A stretch of DNA of 64,000 bases. It comes from Escherichia coli O157 typing phage 13. Position 1 is the stretch's first letter, and the number at the start of each line of letters is the position of its first letter. Made by a program: the position numbers and the translations under genes. The notes under the pieces were generated by a model. That model made no database searches and was not told where the DNA came from. It saw only the letters and a list, made by a program, of their open reading frames with translations. Of the stretch, positions 13,704-61,482 are shown in pieces. The stretch is taken from the sequence record KP869111. One strand, written 5' to 3'.

Positions 13704-14042
13704 TTAACTCCTTTGTTGTTTAATTACAGGTGTATTTATAATGAATTCCTGTGGAACAGTAAAATATCCGAATTTAGCTAATACAACAACATCACCATTA
13801 ATGATTACTGGAGAATAATCATCTGAGTTATTAAATTTCCAATGAAGCCTGTCATCATATCCATCAGAACCAAATGCTCGAGTAGCCGGTCTCCCGGCTT
13901 TTTGCCATGCATAAAAATCAAGTTTCATTTGCAACCCAATCAACCATATGTAGATGGTCTGATAATTGACTAACATGCTGAAGCTGATTAGACAGGAGCT
14001 TACAAATAAGCTCACTGTTATCATTTTTAAATAGTTGGTCAA
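13704..14042 (-). CDS. hypothetical protein with hydrophobic N-terminus
   Basis: 112-aa ORF between 56 and soc (position of segF in T4, but no GIY-YIG features); start uncertain. Confidence 0.4.
   Translation of the reverse strand: MTNYLKMITVSLFVSSCLISFSMLVNYQTIYIWLIGLQMKLDFYAWQKAGRPATRAFGSDGYDDRLHWKFNNSDDYSPVIINGDVVVLAKFGYFTVPQEFIINTPVIKQQRS
13733..13740 (-). promoter_or_regulatory. T4-type late promoter TATAAATA upstream of soc
   Basis: exact TATAAATA on minus strand about 30 nt upstream of soc ATG. Confidence 0.5.
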
Positions 14043-14090
14043 TACGTTTCTTATGAGCTTTCTTAAGCTGACGTTTATTTAAACGAGCCA

Positions 14091-14612
14091 TTAATAACCT
14101 CGGTCTTGACGAGCAAAGTTTTCAGCATTCTTCAGATAATACAGTTTAAAGATTTCTTCAGCAGAAAGACCCAGACCTTGGAACATGTTCAGAACGAAGT
14201 GCAGAATATCAATCATTTCGAATTTAATTTCGAGCTGGTCTTCGGGAGACAGTTCATCAATACGACGATTACGATATTCAGCATGTTGTGCTTTCCATGG
14301 CTTCCACACAGAGCTGGCAGCTTTTTCACCGTTGGACATACCACCAAGTGAAGTCAGCAGTTCACGGAATTCATCATCAATATAATCTTTCTGATTACGC
14401 AGCCAATCAACAACATCGCCAGCAGTAGCCAATTCATCAGGATGTTTGTTATGTTCAGGCTTGTCATTTGCCAGACGAACCTGTAAAGATTTCTGCATAT
14501 CAAGCATTACCTGCAGTGGGTCTTTATCTTCGTGAATCAGAGCATTAAAATAAGCTTCTTCTGCTTTATCAACACCAGAAATAAGTTGTGAACATTCGTT
14601 AAAGTGTGCCAT
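14091..14612 (-). CDS. 56: dCTP pyrophosphatase (dCTPase/dUTPase)
   Basis: MAHFNECSQLISGVDKAE... matches T4 gp56; start at ATG with AAAGGA SD (track ORF extends 5 codons upstream). Confidence 0.85.
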   Translation of the reverse strand: MAHFNECSQLISGVDKAEEAYFNALIHEDKDPLQVMLDMQKSLQVRLANDKPEHNKHPDELATAGDVVDWLRNQKDYIDDEFRELLTSLGGMSNGEKAASSVWKPWKAQHAEYRNRRIDELSPEDQLEIKFEMIDILHFVLNMFQGLGLSAEEIFKLYYLKNAENFARQDRGY

Positions 14613-14700
14613 TATTTTTCCTTTCAATTCAGTATAAGAGAATTAATTCTAACATTAATTTTATAAAGCGTAATAAATAATAGGTAACTAAGGAGATATT

Positions 14701-14898
14701 ATGTTTAAACTTCCATCGTTAATCAACGCTATTAAAGGCAATAAAAAGAAAACTGCTATCGCTGCAATAGTTGTAGGTGGCATTATTTCATGGAACTTCG
14801 GGATTGCACCATTGTTAGTTGCCCATGGTATTATAGTTCCTTCTGTTCCATTGGATACTGTAGTTGATTTGGCCTTTGCTATTATAGGGCTTGTTTAA
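14701..14898 (+). CDS. small hydrophobic (membrane) protein, only plus-strand gene candidate
   Basis: 65 aa; strong SD TAAGGAG 6 nt before ATG; two hydrophobic segments; 3' end overlaps gp61 stop convergently. Confidence 0.5.
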   Translation: MFKLPSLINAIKGNKKKTAIAAIVVGGIISWNFGIAPLLVAHGIIVPSVPLDTVVDLAFAIIGLV

Positions 14899-15917
14899 AT
14901 CTTCGAATAACGAGATAATCTCATTTTAGCATGCAACCCACTTGAAATATTCTGTTTCATATATTCTAAAATTTCTTGTGGTGTTGCATTTTCTTTCATT
15001 ACCATATCATTCACATCCTTTGATCTCCATGGAGCTCGATCCCAGAACATGACACGTTCGCCTGCATCAACTAATCGCTTCATGCGAGCTATAGTATCTG
15101 GATGCCTAGGTTCATTATCCATTACCCATACCCGACGTTCTTTAAATGGTACCACATCTAAATCTATTGAGCCGCCTGTAATAGCGATTGCATTGGGTAT
15201 GAATAAACTATCAATAGGGCCTTCCATTACCCAGACGTCTCCTTCCTTAACACGTTCAACACCATAAATTTTTGTTGCAGACTCAAACGCTTTAATAGTG
15301 ATATATTTCTGAGGAGCATCTTTGCGAAGTGCACGTCCTTGAAATGACTCAGCCTTCCCGTCTTTATTAAAAATAGGAATCACTAAACGTGGTTCGGGAA
15401 TCTCTTTCTTATACGTACCAGGTTGAATCTTGTTGACCAATTTAGGCCATTCTAATGTGAACCATAATCTGTTCCACGATTCTTTAGGAATACACCGAGA
15501 CTTAACATATTTCACAATAGGATGCTCTTCAGGCAGCTTGTCCAGACGAGAACAAGACGGCAAAGAATTTATAGTCTTTTTCTCCGGTTCTGGTTTATGT
15601 TCAGGAACCTTTTCAATCTTTGGTTCCATTCTAGCTTTTTCTTTACGAACTTCCATTAGATATTCGCGATAAAGCTCTTCATCATACTCTTTTAAGTATC
15701 CAGAAATTGTATTGTGGTATTGACAGTTATAGCAATGCACATTACCTGGAGTACCACCGTAATACCATCCGCGAGCTTTCATTGCATCTGTCTGGGAGTC
15801 GCCACAAACTGGACAACGAAACGTTAATTTAAATGTGCTTGAATTATTGATTTGTCTAAAACGAGGGAGGTGAGAAAACGCACGATAAGCAAATTCATTA
15901 TCTATCCATTCAGCCAT
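14895..15917 (-). CDS. 61: DNA primase
   Basis: 340 aa; zinc-ribbon CPVCGDS...CYNC plus Toprim; matches T4 gp61. Confidence 0.85.
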   Translation of the reverse strand: MAEWIDNEFAYRAFSHLPRFRQINNSSTFKLTFRCPVCGDSQTDAMKARGWYYGGTPGNVHCYNCQYHNTISGYLKEYDEELYREYLMEVRKEKARMEPKIEKVPEHKPEPEKKTINSLPSCSRLDKLPEEHPIVKYVKSRCIPKESWNRLWFTLEWPKLVNKIQPGTYKKEIPEPRLVIPIFNKDGKAESFQGRALRKDAPQKYITIKAFESATKIYGVERVKEGDVWVMEGPIDSLFIPNAIAITGGSIDLDVVPFKERRVWVMDNEPRHPDTIARMKRLVDAGERVMFWDRAPWRSKDVNDMVMKENATPQEILEYMKQNISSGLHAKMRLSRYSKI

Positions 15918-15956
15918 AGTATTCTCCAGAGGCCTTAAATTAATAAGGCCATCATA

Positions 15957-16424
15957 TCACAACTTATTAATATTTACTTTAATTCGCTTTCTTTTCTTGG
16001 AAGGAATTTGTTCTGGACCTTTATTTACGACTGCACCTGTAGTTGTTCCTGATGCAATAGCTTGAGGGCTGCCACCTGAATCACCAGCCACCATATCCTC
16101 AAATAAAGGGAGTTCTTTAAATATTTCTTTCTGTTGTTCTTCTGTAATGTTATAGCGGGATGCTACGGCACTCCAGGCAGACATCATTGAGGCCATTCCA
16201 TTAAGACCTGGAACAGTGCTCATCATTCGCTTCATTGAACGAACTGAAGCATGAAAAGGTGTATAAGCCGCTTTCTCTTCAGGAGTGGAAGGACGTTTAA
16301 GAACACTTCCACGTTCATCGATGATTTTGGCTTCGTATGCTTTCCATTCGGTAAAAGGTTTTTGCATTAGTCGAATAAACTTATATGCATAAACAGAATC
16401 TATTGCAGTGTTAATAATACCCAT
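15957..16424 (-). CDS. hypothetical protein
   Basis: Track ORF begins TTG; first ATG (MGIINTAIDS) has AGGAGG SD. Confidence 0.5.
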   Translation of the reverse strand: MGIINTAIDSVYAYKFIRLMQKPFTEWKAYEAKIIDERGSVLKRPSTPEEKAAYTPFHASVRSMKRMMSTVPGLNGMASMMSAWSAVASRYNITEEQQKEIFKELPLFEDMVAGDSGGSPQAIASGTTTGAVVNKGPEQIPSKKRKRIKVNINKL

Positions 16425-17651: not shown

Positions 17652-17900
17652 TTATTCTTTTTCGCGAATAATAATTACTTGTTGAGGCTGCTGAGCCGAT
17701 TTCTTTTCGGCAACGATAGACCAAATTAAAGTTCCAATCCAACCAATCATCGTCCAGTTAAAGAGTAAAGATACAAAGAAGATTGCTGTTGTGCTTTTTG
17801 TGCCACGAATAAGTGCGATTACCCAAGGCAACATGTAAATGATGATTGAACCAATACCTGCGATTAAAACTGCTACTGAACTAGCTACGAATAATTCCAT
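17652..17900 (-). CDS. small inner-membrane protein (2 predicted TM helices)
   Basis: 82 aa; two long hydrophobic stretches; own GTTTAC promoter at 17929-17958. Confidence 0.5.
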   Translation of the reverse strand: MELFVASSVAVLIAGIGSIIIYMLPWVIALIRGTKSTTAIFFVSLLFNWTMIGWIGTLIWSIVAEKKSAQQPQQVIIIREKE

Positions 17901-17928
17901 GTTAATTTCCTCTTGATTTGTTATGTTT

Positions 17929-17958
17929 ATAATATCTTGTTTTAACTTTGGCGTAAAC
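17929..17958 (-). promoter_or_regulatory. early-type promoter GTTTAC-N18-TATTAT
   Basis: seen on minus strand upstream of 17652..17900. Confidence 0.45.
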
Positions 17959-26140: not shown

Positions 26141-26527
26141 TTATAGATTCGGTTTATATGATTTAAATGTTTCGAATTCGCCTTTATTCATAAGAGCTTT
26201 GAATTCGTCAGGACGCATAGCTTTGTCGTCGATAATCCAATCATATACTGGTTTATGTGTTAGCAAATTATGGTACTTCAAACCAATGTTTTCCAAGTTC
26301 TGAATCAGACTTGGGAGAATGTCAATTGCTATACGACCAGGACCTACTGACTTCATACCGCGAGCAGTGTAAAGCGTTATGGTATGCCCTGCATCATACA
26401 GGGCATTAATAGCAGTCACCATTTCGACGTCTGGTTTGAAGTTCACGTAATCACGATTGTTATTCCACTCTGTTATACAATCATCGACATCAAAACAAAG
26501 ATTAAGCATGTTTTCTACACGGTGCAT
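26141..26527 (-). CDS. HAD-superfamily-like small phosphatase
   Basis: FDVDDC (motif I-like DxD), conserved K, IIDD (motif IV-like); start at ATG overlapping upstream stop. Confidence 0.5.
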   Translation of the reverse strand: MHRVENMLNLCFDVDDCITEWNNNRDYVNFKPDVEMVTAINALYDAGHTITLYTARGMKSVGPGRIAIDILPSLIQNLENIGLKYHNLLTHKPVYDWIIDDKAMRPDEFKALMNKGEFETFKSYKPNL

Positions 26528-28212
26528 TAGATTCGTTCCCATTGATGAGTGATATCGCCACCGATTGGACGATAAGAAACACCAGTTTCTTTATCAGTTA
26601 GTACCCATTTACCAGGATTTTTTGTAATCAGAGTAGCCGTTACAGGTTCTGCTACGTCATAACTAATAGAGCCGTCCTGAAGTACACGGCCCATGTTACG
26701 TAATTGCTTAGTCAGAAGTTCCATACCTTTATAATATGCGGCTACCGCTTTAAGTGGATTATTCTTGAAATAACCACCTAATGCAATCCAGATAATTGCT
26801 ACAGCCAAATGATGATACTCGTTAAACGAACTCATCTTTCCATATTTGTAAACTAATGGATTGATGTTAATAGTCACATTACAAGTTGTTTCGTCAATAG
26901 TAAACTGTCCCCAGGTCGGATTAGCGTTGAATTCATCATAACCTGAAACAGCATAAAGCACTTTAGCTTCATCATACAATTTTGGCCCGTAAATCTTGGT
27001 TTCGCCAAAATATCCACGAGGGTCGATAAACTTGACTTCGCCGTTATCAGTAATCATAGTATTACTGAAGTTCGGGTCACCGTGAATAACAGAGTACTGT
27101 CCCTGAGAACGGGTATGATAACGAATAAGATGTTCTAAAGCTTGCTTCAGCATTGGCTTCAGACGTCCAATCTTAGTGTAGTTCACGTGTGTGATTTTAC
27201 CAAATGAATCAATCAATGGCTGAATGCTTTCACAACGATCAATAACTTTCGTATAGAACTCTTTAGTGAAATCACGGCGAACAGTTTCAGGACTTACAAA
27301 ATAAGTGTCTGTGCTGAATTTCAGTGCATCTAAAATTGCATCAACAATTTGTGGACGAGCAAGACTTGATTTGGATTTAATATATTCAAATGCTGGCTTA
27401 CCTTTAATACGTTCCATTTCAAAATTATTTTCATTTACCGAAACTAACTGAGGAACTGAATCTGATTTCACTTTCAAATACCATGAAATCTCATCTTTTT
27501 GAAGAGCTCGACCTTGTTCGGTTAACGCGAATTTAGTTACAGTTTCTTCGCCAATTTCAACTGCATTAAAACTACGATTAAGTTCACGAACTTCATGAGC
27601 TTTTTCAAGTTTAGGCATATCACCTAAATCAATTAGATTCATAAGCTCTGATTTATTGAATGCACTGCCGTAAAGGAATTCTACGAAATCACGTCCTTTG
27701 CAGTATTCATGAATTTCCTCATCAGTAGAACCCATGTAGAATTCCCAGTCTTTGAACTGATAAATTCCTACAACATTACCGCCTGTTGAACCTACGTTAG
27801 TGATATTTTCACCATCGAAATTATATCGACATTCATCACCCTTAACATAGATTGCGTTAACATTCCAAGACCATGAACCAAAATCAGGAATAATATCACA
27901 CCAGTTAACAATTACGTTATGGCCATCTAAATCTTTGTATAATTTAGCAAGAGCATAAGCAGAACCATACGCTTCATCAACTGTACGAATAGTCACATTG
28001 AACCCTTCTTGCTCGCAATAAGCTCGAACAGTTTCAGCAAATTTTGAATGAACTACTACAATAATTTCATCTGCGCCAAGGTCAGAATAAATTGTATACA
28101 AATTGCTCAGAATAGTGTCTTGTTTATAGTTAACAAGAACTTTTGGAATATGATGCGTTATTGGATACAAACGAGTTGCCAGTCCAGCACCAAGAATAAC
28201 AGCTTTTTTCAT
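26527..28212 (-). CDS. bifunctional sugar-1-phosphate nucleotidyltransferase (N-term) / small-molecule kinase of APH-choline-kinase fold (C-term)
   Basis: 561 aa; N-terminal ILGAGLATRLYPIT (RmlA/GlmU-like); C-terminal HGDPNFSNTMI...IDP (Brenner kinase motif); GAGGA SD. Confidence 0.65.
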   Translation of the reverse strand: MKKAVILGAGLATRLYPITHHIPKVLVNYKQDTILSNLYTIYSDLGADEIIVVVHSKFAETVRAYCEQEGFNVTIRTVDEAYGSAYALAKLYKDLDGHNVIVNWCDIIPDFGSWSWNVNAIYVKGDECRYNFDGENITNVGSTGGNVVGIYQFKDWEFYMGSTDEEIHEYCKGRDFVEFLYGSAFNKSELMNLIDLGDMPKLEKAHEVRELNRSFNAVEIGEETVTKFALTEQGRALQKDEISWYLKVKSDSVPQLVSVNENNFEMERIKGKPAFEYIKSKSSLARPQIVDAILDALKFSTDTYFVSPETVRRDFTKEFYTKVIDRCESIQPLIDSFGKITHVNYTKIGRLKPMLKQALEHLIRYHTRSQGQYSVIHGDPNFSNTMITDNGEVKFIDPRGYFGETKIYGPKLYDEAKVLYAVSGYDEFNANPTWGQFTIDETTCNVTININPLVYKYGKMSSFNEYHHLAVAIIWIALGGYFKNNPLKAVAAYYKGMELLTKQLRNMGRVLQDGSISYDVAEPVTATLITKNPGKWVLTDKETGVSYRPIGGDITHQWERI

Positions 28213-28253
28213 GTTGTGGTCCTCATTGGTAAGTAGGTGTATTGTACACTATT

Positions 28254-28397
28254 CTAGTTAAAGCATTCATACTTTGCTTGTAGTCCAATCATAATCCATC
28301 CAATTACAAGTGTTGGAATCATTACTGGAGCCGTTAAGCTCCAGTAGATAGTCATGACAAGCATCAATAGTAAAAGTCCTATTGTTATTGCTTTCAT
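28254..28397 (-). CDS. small hydrophobic membrane protein (47 aa)
   Basis: Own translation MKAITIGLLLLMLVMTIYW...; ATG overlaps SIS-gene stop (ATGA); not in ORF track. Confidence 0.4.
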   Translation of the reverse strand: MKAITIGLLLLMLVMTIYWSLTAPVMIPTLVIGWIMIGLQAKYECFN

Positions 28398-29029
28398 TGT
28401 TCGCCTCGTAACATGGCACCTAGTGCACCGCCTGGATGGAACTTAAGAAAGTCATTAGAGGTAAATCCACGTTCAGACGAAAGGTTGATAGCAAACGTAT
28501 CGATAAGCGCTAACAACAATGTAGTGGACATAGTCGGAGCCAGAGAATTCTCATCAACCTCTACCGCGATGCCTGTACAGAAAGAGTAATCAAAAAGGGC
28601 TTCATTTTCTTGCGGAATGTCTGGGTTACAATGCAACAGAATCTGTTTGACATTTGGACGAATCATTTTAAGATGCTTAGCCACGCCTATCATTTCTTCA
28701 GTCTTACCAGAACGACTAATATGAATCAACACATCATTAGGCGCAATGAATCCTGCATCACCGTGAGAATAATGCCCAGTGTTCAAGTACATACTCGGGA
28801 TACCGAGTGAAGCAAATGTCTCAGAAGCTTTAGTTGCAATATTAGCATTCTTACCAACACCTGTAATAATTACTCGGCTTTCATAATTACTAAGTCCAGG
28901 GCGTCGAAGAGTTTCTAGAATAGCATTATAACGAGCAGGGTTTTGACTAATTACTTTGGCCATAGCGGCCAAAGAAGAAGCTTGTTTTATGATTGCGTCA
29001 ATAGCGATAGTAATAGGAGTAGTTTTCAT
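28394..29029 (-). CDS. SIS-domain sugar-phosphate isomerase (arabinose-5-phosphate isomerase KpsF/GutQ-like, no CBS domains)
   Basis: 211 aa; ITGVGKNANIATK...HGDAGFIAPNDVLIHISRSGKTEE...APTMSTT...HPGGALG match the API/SIS signature. Confidence 0.7.
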   Translation of the reverse strand: MKTTPITIAIDAIIKQASSLAAMAKVISQNPARYNAILETLRRPGLSNYESRVIITGVGKNANIATKASETFASLGIPSMYLNTGHYSHGDAGFIAPNDVLIHISRSGKTEEMIGVAKHLKMIRPNVKQILLHCNPDIPQENEALFDYSFCTGIAVEVDENSLAPTMSTTLLLALIDTFAINLSSERGFTSNDFLKFHPGGALGAMLRGEQ

Positions 29030-37406: not shown

Positions 37407-38422
37407 TGTGTTGCCTCAATATAAAGTTCGTTAGAATATTTGACCAGCGCTTCTCTGTCTTCGTCTGAGATATCTGGAATCGCGTCAATATATTCTTTAA
37501 TGATATCTTGAAGTGATTTAATCTCGATTTCCTGGTCGTCATCAGATTCAACACTGTTATCAACTTTAGAAACCATACGAAGAGAGTGAACTACTTTTTC
37601 AAGTTCAGATTCAAACTTAGTCAACTCTGAATCAATTTCTGATACTATAACACGTACGGCTAGATTAGTATAATCAGAATAATTGATTTTGCCTTTAAAC
37701 GGATAAGTGATTCTTCGATGCCATGTTGTTTCATTAGGAATAAATTCCATACGTTCAACATCAGTGTCAAATACCCAGAATCCACGCGGGTCGTTCTCAT
37801 CACCTGCAGTAAGGGTCCACGGTGTTCCAATATATTTGACGTTAGCAGCTTCAGAGATTGTGTGGAAGTGGCCTGACCAGACTTGTTTATAAGTCTTTAA
37901 GAAATCAGGTTCAAGCCCATGAGACTTCATCCCTTTATAGAAATAAAAGCCGTTCAGTTCCCAGTGCCCAACACAATACGCAGCAGAAGAAGTCTTGATG
38001 TGCTCTAAGATTTCACCTGTATTTTCTTCACACATCCATGGAACGATATCAATCAGACATCCGTCAAAATCTACAGTAGTCGGATGCTCATAAATAGTAA
38101 AGTTTTCAAATTGAGTTAACAATTCAGAAACAGTGTTAGGTGTTATTGTATTCTTAAACGCCATGTCATGGTTTCCTATCGTGACATGAACGTGAATGCC
38201 TGCTTTAGAAATCATATCAACGATTTCACGATTGAATTCCATTGTACGATGTGTTATTGCTTTACGGACGTCAAACCAATCACCGTACTGAATCCAAGTT
38301 TTAATCCCGTGTTTCTTAGAGTATTCAATTGCTTGTCGAATACCATCACGTTGAATATCTTGAACCCATGGGTCGTCTTGTTTGACTCCGATATGGAAGT
38401 CGCCTAAGTGCAAAATTTTCAT
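37403..38422 (-). CDS. 47: recombination endonuclease subunit (Mre11/SbcD-like phosphoesterase)
   Basis: 339 aa; MKILHLGDFH, GNHD phosphoesterase motifs; matches T4 gp47. Confidence 0.85.
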   Translation of the reverse strand: MKILHLGDFHIGVKQDDPWVQDIQRDGIRQAIEYSKKHGIKTWIQYGDWFDVRKAITHRTMEFNREIVDMISKAGIHVHVTIGNHDMAFKNTITPNTVSELLTQFENFTIYEHPTTVDFDGCLIDIVPWMCEENTGEILEHIKTSSAAYCVGHWELNGFYFYKGMKSHGLEPDFLKTYKQVWSGHFHTISEAANVKYIGTPWTLTAGDENDPRGFWVFDTDVERMEFIPNETTWHRRITYPFKGKINYSDYTNLAVRVIVSEIDSELTKFESELEKVVHSLRMVSKVDNSVESDDDQEIEIKSLQDIIKEYIDAIPDISDEDREALVKYSNELYIEATQ

Positions 38423-43402: not shown

Positions 43403-43873
43403 TTAATCATGTTTCCACACCCCATTGGTATTCGACCAAAGTCGCTGATTATCTGATCCTCGCCACAGTTTTTTGGTCGGAAGATTTTTCTCATACTTCC
43501 CATCAATAATAACATCAACATATTTAAGCATTTCTAGTTGTTTAATATCTTCAAACTTATATCCTGTCCACAACCAAATGCTTTTATTGGGATAAATATT
43601 TTTTACTGTTTGAACAATGCAATGAACAACATCTCTATTATCAGGATAGAGAGGGTCGCCTCCGGTTATAGTCAATCCTTCTATATAATCATTATTCAAA
43701 CATTCAATTAATTGTTCTAGTGTCTCTCCAGTGAATGGAGCACCATTTCTAGCGTTCCATGTTGATTTATTATAACACCCTTCACATTTATGCAAACAAC
43801 CTGTAACGAAAAGAACGACCCTGCAACCAGGGCCATTCACAAAATCGCAAGGATAAAATCTATCATAATTCAT
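43403..43873 (-). CDS. nrdG: anaerobic ribonucleotide reductase activating protein (radical SAM)
   Basis: 156 aa; CLHKCEGC radical-SAM cluster motif; matches T4 NrdG. Confidence 0.85.
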   Translation of the reverse strand: MNYDRFYPCDFVNGPGCRVVLFVTGCLHKCEGCYNKSTWNARNGAPFTGETLEQLIECLNNDYIEGLTITGGDPLYPDNRDVVHCIVQTVKNIYPNKSIWLWTGYKFEDIKQLEMLKYVDVIIDGKYEKNLPTKKLWRGSDNQRLWSNTNGVWKHD

Positions 43874-53883: not shown

Positions 53884-53914
53884 ATTTACCTCAAGTTAAT
53901 GGTTATTTATCTAT

Positions 53915-54904
53915 TTATTTATAGTAAGAATTATGATTTTCGAGATAGACTTGCTCAAGGAAGTCATCCCAGAAACTCATATCTACTTTTTGTTGCATAC
54001 CGTTCTTAGCGGCTTGTTCTGACGCATGTTCAACTTGGTCAACGATATCTTCTAGGAATTCTTGCACAGTTTTAAACGTATGTTTACCAAGCTTAACATC
54101 GAGAATAAATGGAGCATCCTGAAGTGGGTAAACCAGGTCGCCGGTTTTGTAAATTTCCAATAATTGAAGTCCACCACGACATGCATGACTCAATGCTTTC
54201 CAGTCAATACCTTCGTTAGCTTCTGCCTTACGAGCACGTTCGCCATAGTTCTCTTCCAGTTTAACCAGGATGGCATTGAACTCTTTATTGGTTAACGTAT
54301 CTTGGAATTTACGGTCTAACAGATTATAGAATGTTTGCTTACCTGTTTTCTCGTTTTCGGTTTCAACCCATGAAGCAAATTCACCTACAGGCAGAACATT
54401 CTTCATATGTGATAAACGAATTACTGCACCATTATCAAAGTATTGTCCCCATTCATTAGAACGTTTAAGGGCTTGACGAAGAACAGCCAGTCGAGAACCC
54501 TTGACACCGTATTTAGAAGCTTGCTTACGGACATACCCTAAATAAGATTTCATGTTAGTGGTATAGAAACGAGACCTGTTATCTTGAATATACTTCCATA
54601 CATCAGGCAAATCAGATTTAACTACTAGACTTTGTGGAGTGTGAAGCATATCTAATGCGACGGTTTCACCATCTGCAGCTAGTTTAAAGAAATATTTGAG
54701 ACTATATAACTCATGGTCCACGTCGTCTTTTGTGTTCTTAGAAGATGTGTTATTCGTGTTCTTGCTCATGTGTTCTTTAACGTTACCGGTCAAGATATCA
54801 CGAGCATGAGGGACATAAATTTCTTTAAAATCGACGTCAGATTCAGGAGTAGACGTTCCATAAAGGTGGCTACCAAAGTAGCCTTTCATAATTGTTTTCA
54901 TCAT
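53915..54904 (-). CDS. polymerase-beta-type nucleotidyltransferase-fold protein, function unknown
   Basis: 329 aa; N-terminal GSHLYGTSTPESDVDF fits the G[SG]x9-13 DxD NTase motif. Confidence 0.5.
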   Translation of the reverse strand: MMKTIMKGYFGSHLYGTSTPESDVDFKEIYVPHARDILTGNVKEHMSKNTNNTSSKNTKDDVDHELYSLKYFFKLAADGETVALDMLHTPQSLVVKSDLPDVWKYIQDNRSRFYTTNMKSYLGYVRKQASKYGVKGSRLAVLRQALKRSNEWGQYFDNGAVIRLSHMKNVLPVGEFASWVETENEKTGKQTFYNLLDRKFQDTLTNKEFNAILVKLEENYGERARKAEANEGIDWKALSHACRGGLQLLEIYKTGDLVYPLQDAPFILDVKLGKHTFKTVQEFLEDIVDQVEHASEQAAKNGMQQKVDMSFWDDFLEQVYLENHNSYYK

Positions 54905-61120: not shown

Positions 61121-61482
61121 TATAGACTCTCAGTAAAGGTACGAGCGATAACGTCGCGCTGCTGTTCCGGGGTCAGAGAGTTAAAGCGAACTGCATAACC
61201 GGATACACGGATGGTCAGCTGTGGATATTTTTCCGGATGCTTAACTGCATCTTCCAGAGTTTCGCGACGCAGAACGTTAACGTTCAGATGTTGACCACCT
61301 TCAATTTTAACTTTAGGTTGATGTTCAATTTCAATTTCACGGGCATTCAAACCGTAGAAAATTTCCGGGTCTACAATAGCGTCTTCTTTAAAAGTCTTAG
61401 AGACGATAATCCGGGCTTGAGTACCGTCTTCAAAATAAATAGTGCCTTTATGTGCACCTTCAAGAATTTGATATGCTTTCAT
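61120..61482 (-). CDS. autonomous glycyl radical cofactor (GrcA/YfiD-like; T4 Y06I-type)
   Basis: 120 aa; C-terminal [59 protein letters not shown] with RVSGY glycyl radical motif, essentially as in enterobacterial GrcA. Confidence 0.75.

Follow-up and report, generated by a model that had tools for sequence, protein, structure and literature searches.

A conserved plus-strand gene facing primase gene 61 in T-even phages, with a candidate late promoter and a predicted small membrane product

The DNA analysed here, called the window throughout, is a 64-kb stretch in which each position equals the NC_041864.1 position minus 18763. A 1.6-kb query taken around the ORF under study is 100% identical to E. 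coli O157 typing phages 3 and 6 (Mosigvirus, RB69-like, Tevenvirinae). The ORF, FDG80_gp053, lies on the plus strand at positions 14701-14898, from an ATG at 14701 to a TAA ending at 14898, and encodes 65 aa, as described in an earlier note made from the sequence alone. It is preceded by the Shine-Dalgarno sequence TAAGGAG (14689-14695, plus strand), which the same note had reported with a 6-nt spacing: the ribosome binding site stands, and its spacer measures 5 nt (ATATT). An in-frame TAA is found within the Shine-Dalgarno sequence itself, at 14689-14691, so the ATG at 14701 is the only possible start. An equivalent AGGAGG or AAGGAGG sequence is present in every lineage compared. At the other end, the stop codon of FDG80_gp053 overlaps that of the convergent primase gene 61 (14895-15917, minus strand) within the 4-nt palindrome TTAA at 14895-14898, which is the overlap that had been noticed previously.

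Among the approximately 124 CDSs annotated across the window in RefSeq (NC_041864), FDG80_gp053 is the sole one on the plus strand. An independent scan of the window singled out the same ORF, as the only one on this strand of at least 25 aa which combines an ATG with a Shine-Dalgarno sequence and is for the most part clear of minus-strand ORFs. Both results bear out the previous statement that no other convincing plus-strand ORF exists in the 64 kb. The region from 14628 to 14894, filled by FDG80_gp053, is the largest internal gap lacking minus-strand ORFs of at least 50 aa.

RefSeq labels the product as a hypothetical protein, and the copy in phage 55 is labelled as a putative transmembrane protein. 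The RB69 copy is already annotated as RB69ORF029w, and was listed under 'novel ORFs', with a transmembrane segment predicted by TMHMM at residues 21-41 (Nolan et al. 2006, PMC1524935). The PHROG 2024 HMM matches FDG80_gp053 over its full length (E=1.9e-27), residues 1-65 falling on positions 1-65 of the 65 in the profile. FDG80_gp053 is a real and conserved gene; being already annotated as RB69ORF029w and included in PHROG 2024, it is not a new one. Compared with PHROG 2024, RB69ORF029w and VR7ORF033w, it has the same length, genomic slot and strand, and nothing differs. The PHROG 2024 family carries no assigned function and no Pfam model, and no literature on it was found.

Between 692 and 914 phage records, depending on the search, match the family. 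By tblastn with FDG80_gp053, 692 phage records were matched, 685 of them over at least 80% of the protein. In at least six genera of Tevenvirinae a plus-strand ORF of 63-67 aa occupies the slot between gene 56 and gene 61 and converges on the latter: Mosigvirus (the window phage, RB69, a20 and phage 55), Tequatrovirus (T4), Gaprivervirus (CJ20 and TH41), Jiaodavirus (Klebsiella phage KP1079), Dhakavirus (QL01) and Mosugukvirus (Pectobacterium phage PM2); three metagenomic contigs show the same arrangement. The upstream neighbour is the dCTPase gene 56, dam or a homing endonuclease gene, with primase gene 61 always on the opposite side and strand, in accordance with the synteny of PHROG 2024. 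A profile search of a collection of 5.8 billion proteins returned 117 clusters, all of them made of proteins of about 41-74 aa; the long contigs carrying the family measure about 160-193 kb, and wherever a source name within these clusters points to a phage, that phage is T4-like. When 1.84 billion representatives were scanned in full by HMMER with a profile of close homologs, only 2 clusters were found, none beyond the family, which therefore appears to be without distant relatives. These searches place the family in enterobacterial Tevenvirinae only.

Three subtypes may be distinguished: A, found in Mosig-, Tequatro- and Gaprivervirus; B, found in Dhaka- and Mosugukvirus and in large Klebsiella and Enterobacter phages; and C, found in Jiaodavirus. 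All three match PHROG 2024, including the T4, Dhaka, Mosuguk and Jiaoda proteins and both Gaprivervirus copies. A and B also occur as tandem paralogs, about 20-25% identical to each other, in the order A-B in the Gaprivervirus TH41 (positions 1501-1698 and 1707-1907 of its locus, the B copy having the 4-nt overlap with primase) and in the order B-A in a metagenomic T4-like contig, L014 (1305-1508 and 1501-1698). In CJ20, the other Gaprivervirus, a degenerate B copy is found at 1699-1816 of the locus; it begins with ATG TGA, and the segment is annotated as intergenic. A strong hairpin lying 3' of the CJ20 ORF had been considered as a bidirectional terminator, and was rejected once TH41 showed that the 118-nt 'gap' is the degenerate second paralog. 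A family which is duplicated and diverged in some genera, and present in enterobacterial Tevenvirinae only, follows a pattern typical of envelope or conflict genes.

The T4 ortholog is located at 17738-17938 of NC_000866.4 (plus strand; 2739-2939 of the extracted locus), encodes 66 aa, is 54% identical to FDG80_gp053 and shares the TTAA overlap with gene 61. The gene order in T4 is 56-dam-ORF-61, and dam is absent from the Mosigvirus locus. The earlier note had placed the window ORF where T4 carries dam; the comparison was incomplete, as T4 has its own copy between dam and gene 61. In NC_000866.4 no feature is annotated from the end of dam (17625) to the start of gene 61 (17935), a 310-bp 'intergenic' gap. 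The exact sequence of the T4 protein has no record in the NCBI or UniProt protein databases and is found in read-archive assemblies only; a T4 assembly annotated with Pharokka does include the ORF. Since the reference lacks it, proteomic, CRISPRi and deletion screens built on NC_000866.4 cannot have seen this gene. In T4_ev240 (LR597657.1; about 1910-2108 of locus L017) a 1-nt deletion within the A-run of the lysine codons shifts the frame and leaves an annotated remnant of 41 aa. It may be a homopolymer error of sequencing or assembly, or a gene loss in laboratory culture; if the frameshift is real, the gene would be dispensable in the laboratory. The copy of ERS-1 (PP337211) was matched in two pieces.

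The evidence for coding comes from the comparison of 11 copies, representing nine distinct lineages. In all 11, frame +1 is free of internal stops, and the other five frames contain stops in most copies. Between the window phage and RB69 there are 6 synonymous changes and 1 non-synonymous change (Sd=6, Nd=1), and the comparison with the metagenomic L014 copy gives a pS of 0.78 and a pN of 0.16. Synonymous sites are saturated between genera (pS 0.7-0.8), with pN values of 0.2-0.55. The mean pairwise differences at codon positions 1, 2 and 3 are 0.41, 0.18 and 0.59, i.e. in the order 3>1>2, and in-frame length variants or indels are seen in a20, P0004 and P0033. This pattern of substitutions indicates that the family is under purifying selection at the protein level.

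The predicted product, of about 6.7 kDa, has a basic N-terminus, in which all five K/R residues fall between positions 3 and 17 (K3, K12, K15-17), followed by a hydrophobic portion (18-65) that contains two Asp residues, D52 and D56, and ends in ...DLAFAIIGLV. Its structure was modelled by AlphaFold2 from an alignment of 38 sequences, with a mean pLDDT of 79.8 and the highest confidence (88-90) over residues 21-50; the model has three helices (4-13, 15-41 and 51-62), with residues 42-50 as a loop. Hydropathy and the model agree on a transmembrane helix at about 15-41. Of the two hydrophobic segments previously proposed, the first corresponds to this one clear transmembrane helix, and the second is better described as a short hydrophobic or amphipathic C-terminal helix (51-62) with two Asp residues; with about 12 residues, and too acidic, it does not qualify as a confident membrane span. 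M1, W31, N32, P37 and G43 are invariant and A39 and P47 nearly so; almost all members have H, Q or N at position 42, and 37 out of 38 have an acidic residue (D or E) at position 52. The transmembrane helix is thus followed by a conserved loop, H42-G43-x3-P47 in the window phage and (H/Q)G-x3-P in the family.

According to the positive-inside rule, the basic N-terminus would be cytoplasmic. A bitopic N-in/C-out topology, with the C-terminal helix at the membrane interface, is favoured here; the protein may instead form a helical hairpin, in which the C-terminal helix crosses the membrane. The conservation of an invariant Asn in the middle of the membrane suggests self-association or the binding of a partner. 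No matches to Pfam or NCBIfam were obtained with the window protein or with four others representing the subtypes. The AlphaFold2 model retrieved only its own family from BFVD and had 0 Foldseek hits in the PDB, and a profile search of the PDB gave only chance transmembrane matches (E>0.2). By hhalign, the family shows no similarity to Imm and RI of the window phage.

Upstream of the gene, the octamer AATAAATA (14672-14679, plus strand) lies 21 nt before the ATG, as the -13 to -6 region of a candidate gp55-dependent late promoter. The transcription start predicted from this candidate box is at about 14685, with a leader of about 16 nt. The earlier note had described the motif as one mismatch away from a late promoter, and the comparison of lineages supports it strongly. 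In 8 of the 9 distinct lineages the first ORF of the unit has NATAAATA ahead of it, at 12-28 nt from the ATG, with a strong Shine-Dalgarno sequence in between; the motif is kept while the flanking sequence is poorly alignable. In T4, both AAAGGAGG and GATAAATA, the latter at about 17709-17716, precede the ortholog. An exact ATAAATA is absent upstream of the copy in the remaining lineage, L015. The first position of the motif (N, at -13) is A, G or C and never T, a count that rests on 11 motif instances which are not independent; the IMG/VR locus scan comprises 7 loci. Of 50 late promoter sites in T4, 32 are perfect and 9 have an A at -13, which is the commonest variant (Geiduschek and Kassavetis, PMC2988020), and in relatives of T4 this position is poorly conserved, A or T (Nolan et al., PMC1524935). 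The late-promoter HMM used in the latter study called no site before RB69ORF029w.

The distribution of the core motif within the window points in the same direction. ATAAATA is depleted, with 11 occurrences against 28.5 +/- 5.3 expected. All 7 of the minus-strand matches lie 24-32 nt upstream of a Shine-Dalgarno sequence and an ATG; the matches on this strand, at 13739, 46193, 53910-53922, 57090 and 57313, precede soc, the endonuclease VII gene 49, rI, an ORF upstream of rI and gp121. The box before rI is the same AATAAATA variant. On the plus strand the motif is found at 14673, 38090, 43592 and 61435, and only at 14673 (1 of 4) does an ORF follow. Since the motif is depleted while every minus-strand copy stands before a gene start, ATAAATA appears to be avoided in the window except where it is active as a promoter. 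Late expression of FDG80_gp053 from a gp55-type promoter is therefore likely, given the association of NATAAATA with a Shine-Dalgarno sequence in 8 of 9 lineages and a depleted core motif that otherwise precedes late genes. Lacking a T at -13, the promoter may be weak or need another factor. A full-text search of the T4 and RB69 literature found no transcript, ribosome-profiling or proteomic evidence for any family member.

The three further NATAAATA boxes on the plus strand lie within minus-strand genes, with no plus-strand ORF downstream: CATAAATA at 38089-38096, GATAAATA at 43591-43598 and AATAAATA at 61434-61441. They could be due to chance, or be late promoters for purely antisense transcripts.

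The late box stands back-to-back with a predicted MotA-type middle promoter of gene 56 (ACGCTTTA, 12 nt, TAGAAT; 14638-14678, minus strand), which corresponds to RB69 Pm:16038, with a score of 21.6 (Nolan et al. 2006), at an offset of 1360. The upstream end of this promoter overlaps the late box by 7 nt, and its MotA box is located immediately next to the late box. A MotA-box-like GCTT(T/A)A adjoining or overlapping the late box is also found in the Dhaka, Mosuguk and Gapriver lineages and in L014 and L016, as exemplified by TAAAGCATAAATA in Gaprivervirus. The adjacency may reflect only how short the intergenic region is, and a switch function for the pair is speculation.

At the 3' end, a scan of 14000-16200 detected no intrinsic terminator. 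The overlap with gene 61 is 4 nt long in the window phage, T4, QL01 and TH41-B, and extends to 14 nt in L016 and 21 nt in PM2; the two genes are instead separated by 9 nt in L015 and by 18 nt in L014 and KP1079, and each of these gaps is taken up by a short GC hairpin, after which a U run comes in L014 and L015 and not in KP1079. The TTAA arrangement is therefore not conserved in KP1079, L014, L015, L016 and PM2. In the window phage and in T4 the ORF reaches into the stop codon of gene 61, and with no terminator found in window positions 14000-16200 a late transcript would probably run some way antisense into the 3' end of gene 61. As the overlap is not conserved and selection acts on the protein, any antisense effect looks like a by-product and not a conserved function. 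The suggestion of a transcript antisense to the end of the primase mRNA has therefore lost most of its weight: the coding sequences share 4 nt, their spacing elsewhere ranges from -21 to +18 nt, hairpins intervene in three lineages and selection is seen at the protein level.

All together, these data are best explained by a conserved gene with its own variant late promoter and a small inner-membrane protein as product, a reading that we consider probable. The NATAAATA box would be read by RNA polymerase carrying gp55, gp33 and gp45, so that FDG80_gp053 would be transcribed on its own, as an mRNA with a short leader and a strong Shine-Dalgarno sequence from which the protein would be translated. 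The product of about 6.7 kDa would insert into the inner membrane, its lysine-rich N-terminus being kept in the cytoplasm, through one long transmembrane helix marked by the Trp-Asn pair and a Pro kink; the (H/Q)G-x3-P loop and the short acidic and hydrophobic C-terminal helix would lie at the periplasmic face. The late timing, the membrane topology and the oligomerisation, or partner binding, via the buried Asn are all inferred. As to its role, the most likely proposal, still a speculative one, is that FDG80_gp053 modulates the cell envelope late in infection without being essential, and affects the timing of lysis or lysis inhibition, or the exclusion of, or resistance to, other phages. A structural or replication protein is unlikely.

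Other explanations were weighed against the same evidence. That FDG80_gp053 is no gene, and arose by chance as an ORF in an AT-rich spacer, would recall the many plus-strand ORFs of 60-90 aa that lie antisense to minus-strand genes in the window; codon-level selection, open frames and wide conservation contradict this view, which has a negligible probability and is refuted as far as sequence analysis reaches. It is also rather unlikely that the gene, though real, is expressed early or in the middle period, or constitutively at a low level, from an unrecognised promoter, with ATAAATA conserved for another purpose, e.g. as an AT-rich upstream element of the gene 56 middle promoter. The late box does abut or overlap the MotA box of the minus-strand promoter, the HMM of Nolan et al. 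gave no late score to the RB69 site, and a T at -13 is missing in all lineages. Early and middle transcripts of T4, however, are all of the opposite polarity (PMC2988020), no sigma-70-like promoter was found on the plus strand in 14000-16200, T4 keeps the motif though dam separates it from gene 56, and the distance of 12-28 nt from the motif to the Shine-Dalgarno sequence and ATG fits the late genes of the window. A role of the RNA itself, in which a late transcript from the plus strand base-pairs with the end of gene 61 mRNA and with mRNA reading through toward gene 56, shutting down early and middle replication genes, with the ORF as an incidental passenger, would agree with the ORF ending inside the primase stop in the window phage, T4 and QL01, with no terminator in 14000-16200, and with the transcription of both strands at several T4 sites at different times (PMC2988020). 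It is nevertheless very unlikely: the substitutions are distributed over the codon positions as in a protein under purifying selection, with synonymous sites saturated, the overlap varies from -21 to +18 nt, the GC hairpins after the ORF (with a U run in L014 and L015, without it in KP1079) would stop the antisense transcript, and the tandem paralogs speak for a function of the protein.

A more specific assignment, to a holin, pinholin or antiholin-type lysis protein, is suggested by the small, hydrophobic and probably late product, by the labels 'Putative holin' and 'Holin' given to homologs in KP1079 and vB_EcoM_OE5505, and by the AATAAATA variant that also drives rI in the window. These labels, however, are guesses of the submitters, given without evidence, and the assignment is unlikely. 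One transmembrane domain is predicted (15-41), as holins require, but a charged hydrophilic cytoplasmic tail at the C-terminus is lacking: this end is hydrophobic, and the charges are gathered at the N-terminus. The usual holin layout has a charged C-terminal domain, the reverse of FDG80_gp053. Nor does the gene lie in a lysis cassette or adjoin an endolysin, its neighbours being the dCTPase and primase genes in every lineage, and profile comparison with RI and Imm shows no similarity, nor is any holin family of Pfam or NCBIfam matched. T-even phages, besides, already have holin T, RI and RIII.

The closest known systems each share some of these features. Like the set formed by the T4 RI antiholin, holin T and the other lysis-inhibition proteins, FDG80_gp053 has a probable late TATAAATA-type box, and its predicted product is small, sits in the inner membrane and exposes only a short portion to the periplasm; unlike that set, it has no signal-anchor-release N-terminus and no sizeable periplasmic domain, lies at a different genomic location and is not similar to RI. 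Class II holins and pinholins (S21, about 70 aa, two transmembrane domains) resemble it in size, in having two hydrophobic stretches joined by a short turn and in its probable late timing, whereas in FDG80_gp053 the charge is N-terminal, the second stretch has about 12 residues and a conserved acidic residue, and no endolysin is adjacent. Imm and Sp, the superinfection exclusion proteins of T4, are small membrane proteins as well, with genes 3 kb away in the shared 56-61-sp-imm neighbourhood, and a fast-evolving duplicated family is what would be expected of genes involved in conflicts between phages; they differ, however, in being early and on the minus strand, and no similarity to Imm is seen. 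Type I toxin-like peptides also derive from short hydrophobic ORFs whose mRNA is complementary to transcripts of the other strand; for FDG80_gp053, in contrast, the antisense partners would be the ordinary mRNAs of the flanking genes, with no dedicated small RNA seen, and the sequence is well conserved. Opposite the gene, the other strand holds nothing but the end of the primase gene and the promoter of gene 56, and no separate promoter/terminator pair for a small RNA was seen in 14000-16200.

A wider reading may be put forward, though its probability is low. The A, B and C proteins would form an overlooked family of T-even late membrane proteins, whose promoter, paired with that of gene 56, would work as a middle-to-late switch: the firing of the gp55-polymerase would yield the membrane protein and also lower primase and dCTPase expression through promoter occlusion and convergent antisense transcription, and the protein would be a new late factor of lysis timing or exclusion. 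If this were true, such a factor would have escaped notice over 70 years of T4 genetics for lack of an entry in the reference annotation. Coming back to the preferred reading, of a conserved late gene for a small membrane protein, FDG80_gp053 is the only unit on the plus strand over some 64 kb of early and middle genes, with a conserved variant of the late promoter, and as such a clean and testable case of a late gene lying within the early region. The value of the finding lies in the gap of the T4 reference annotation, in the conserved promoter variant and in the paralog structure; should a phenotype be found, e.g. in lysis timing or exclusion, a component would be added to a very well studied system.

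Two other regions of the window deserve mention. Between soc and gene 56, at 13704-14091 (minus strand), two small ORFs are labelled in RefSeq as 'head protein' and 'virion structural protein'; small ORFs at this position are elsewhere called 'hypothetical', 'soc.2' or 'putative transmembrane protein'. The product of the ORF at 13704-14042 (minus strand) begins with a hydrophobic segment, and for this reason the structural labels look over-annotated. Just downstream of the DNA polymerase gene, at 26141-29029 (minus strand), a cluster is annotated as a phosphoheptose isomerase, a bifunctional GlmU and an arabinose-5-phosphate isomerase (KpsF), and resembles a pathway for sugar nucleotides; in phages of the RB69 type, arabinose is used to modify hydroxymethylcytosine.
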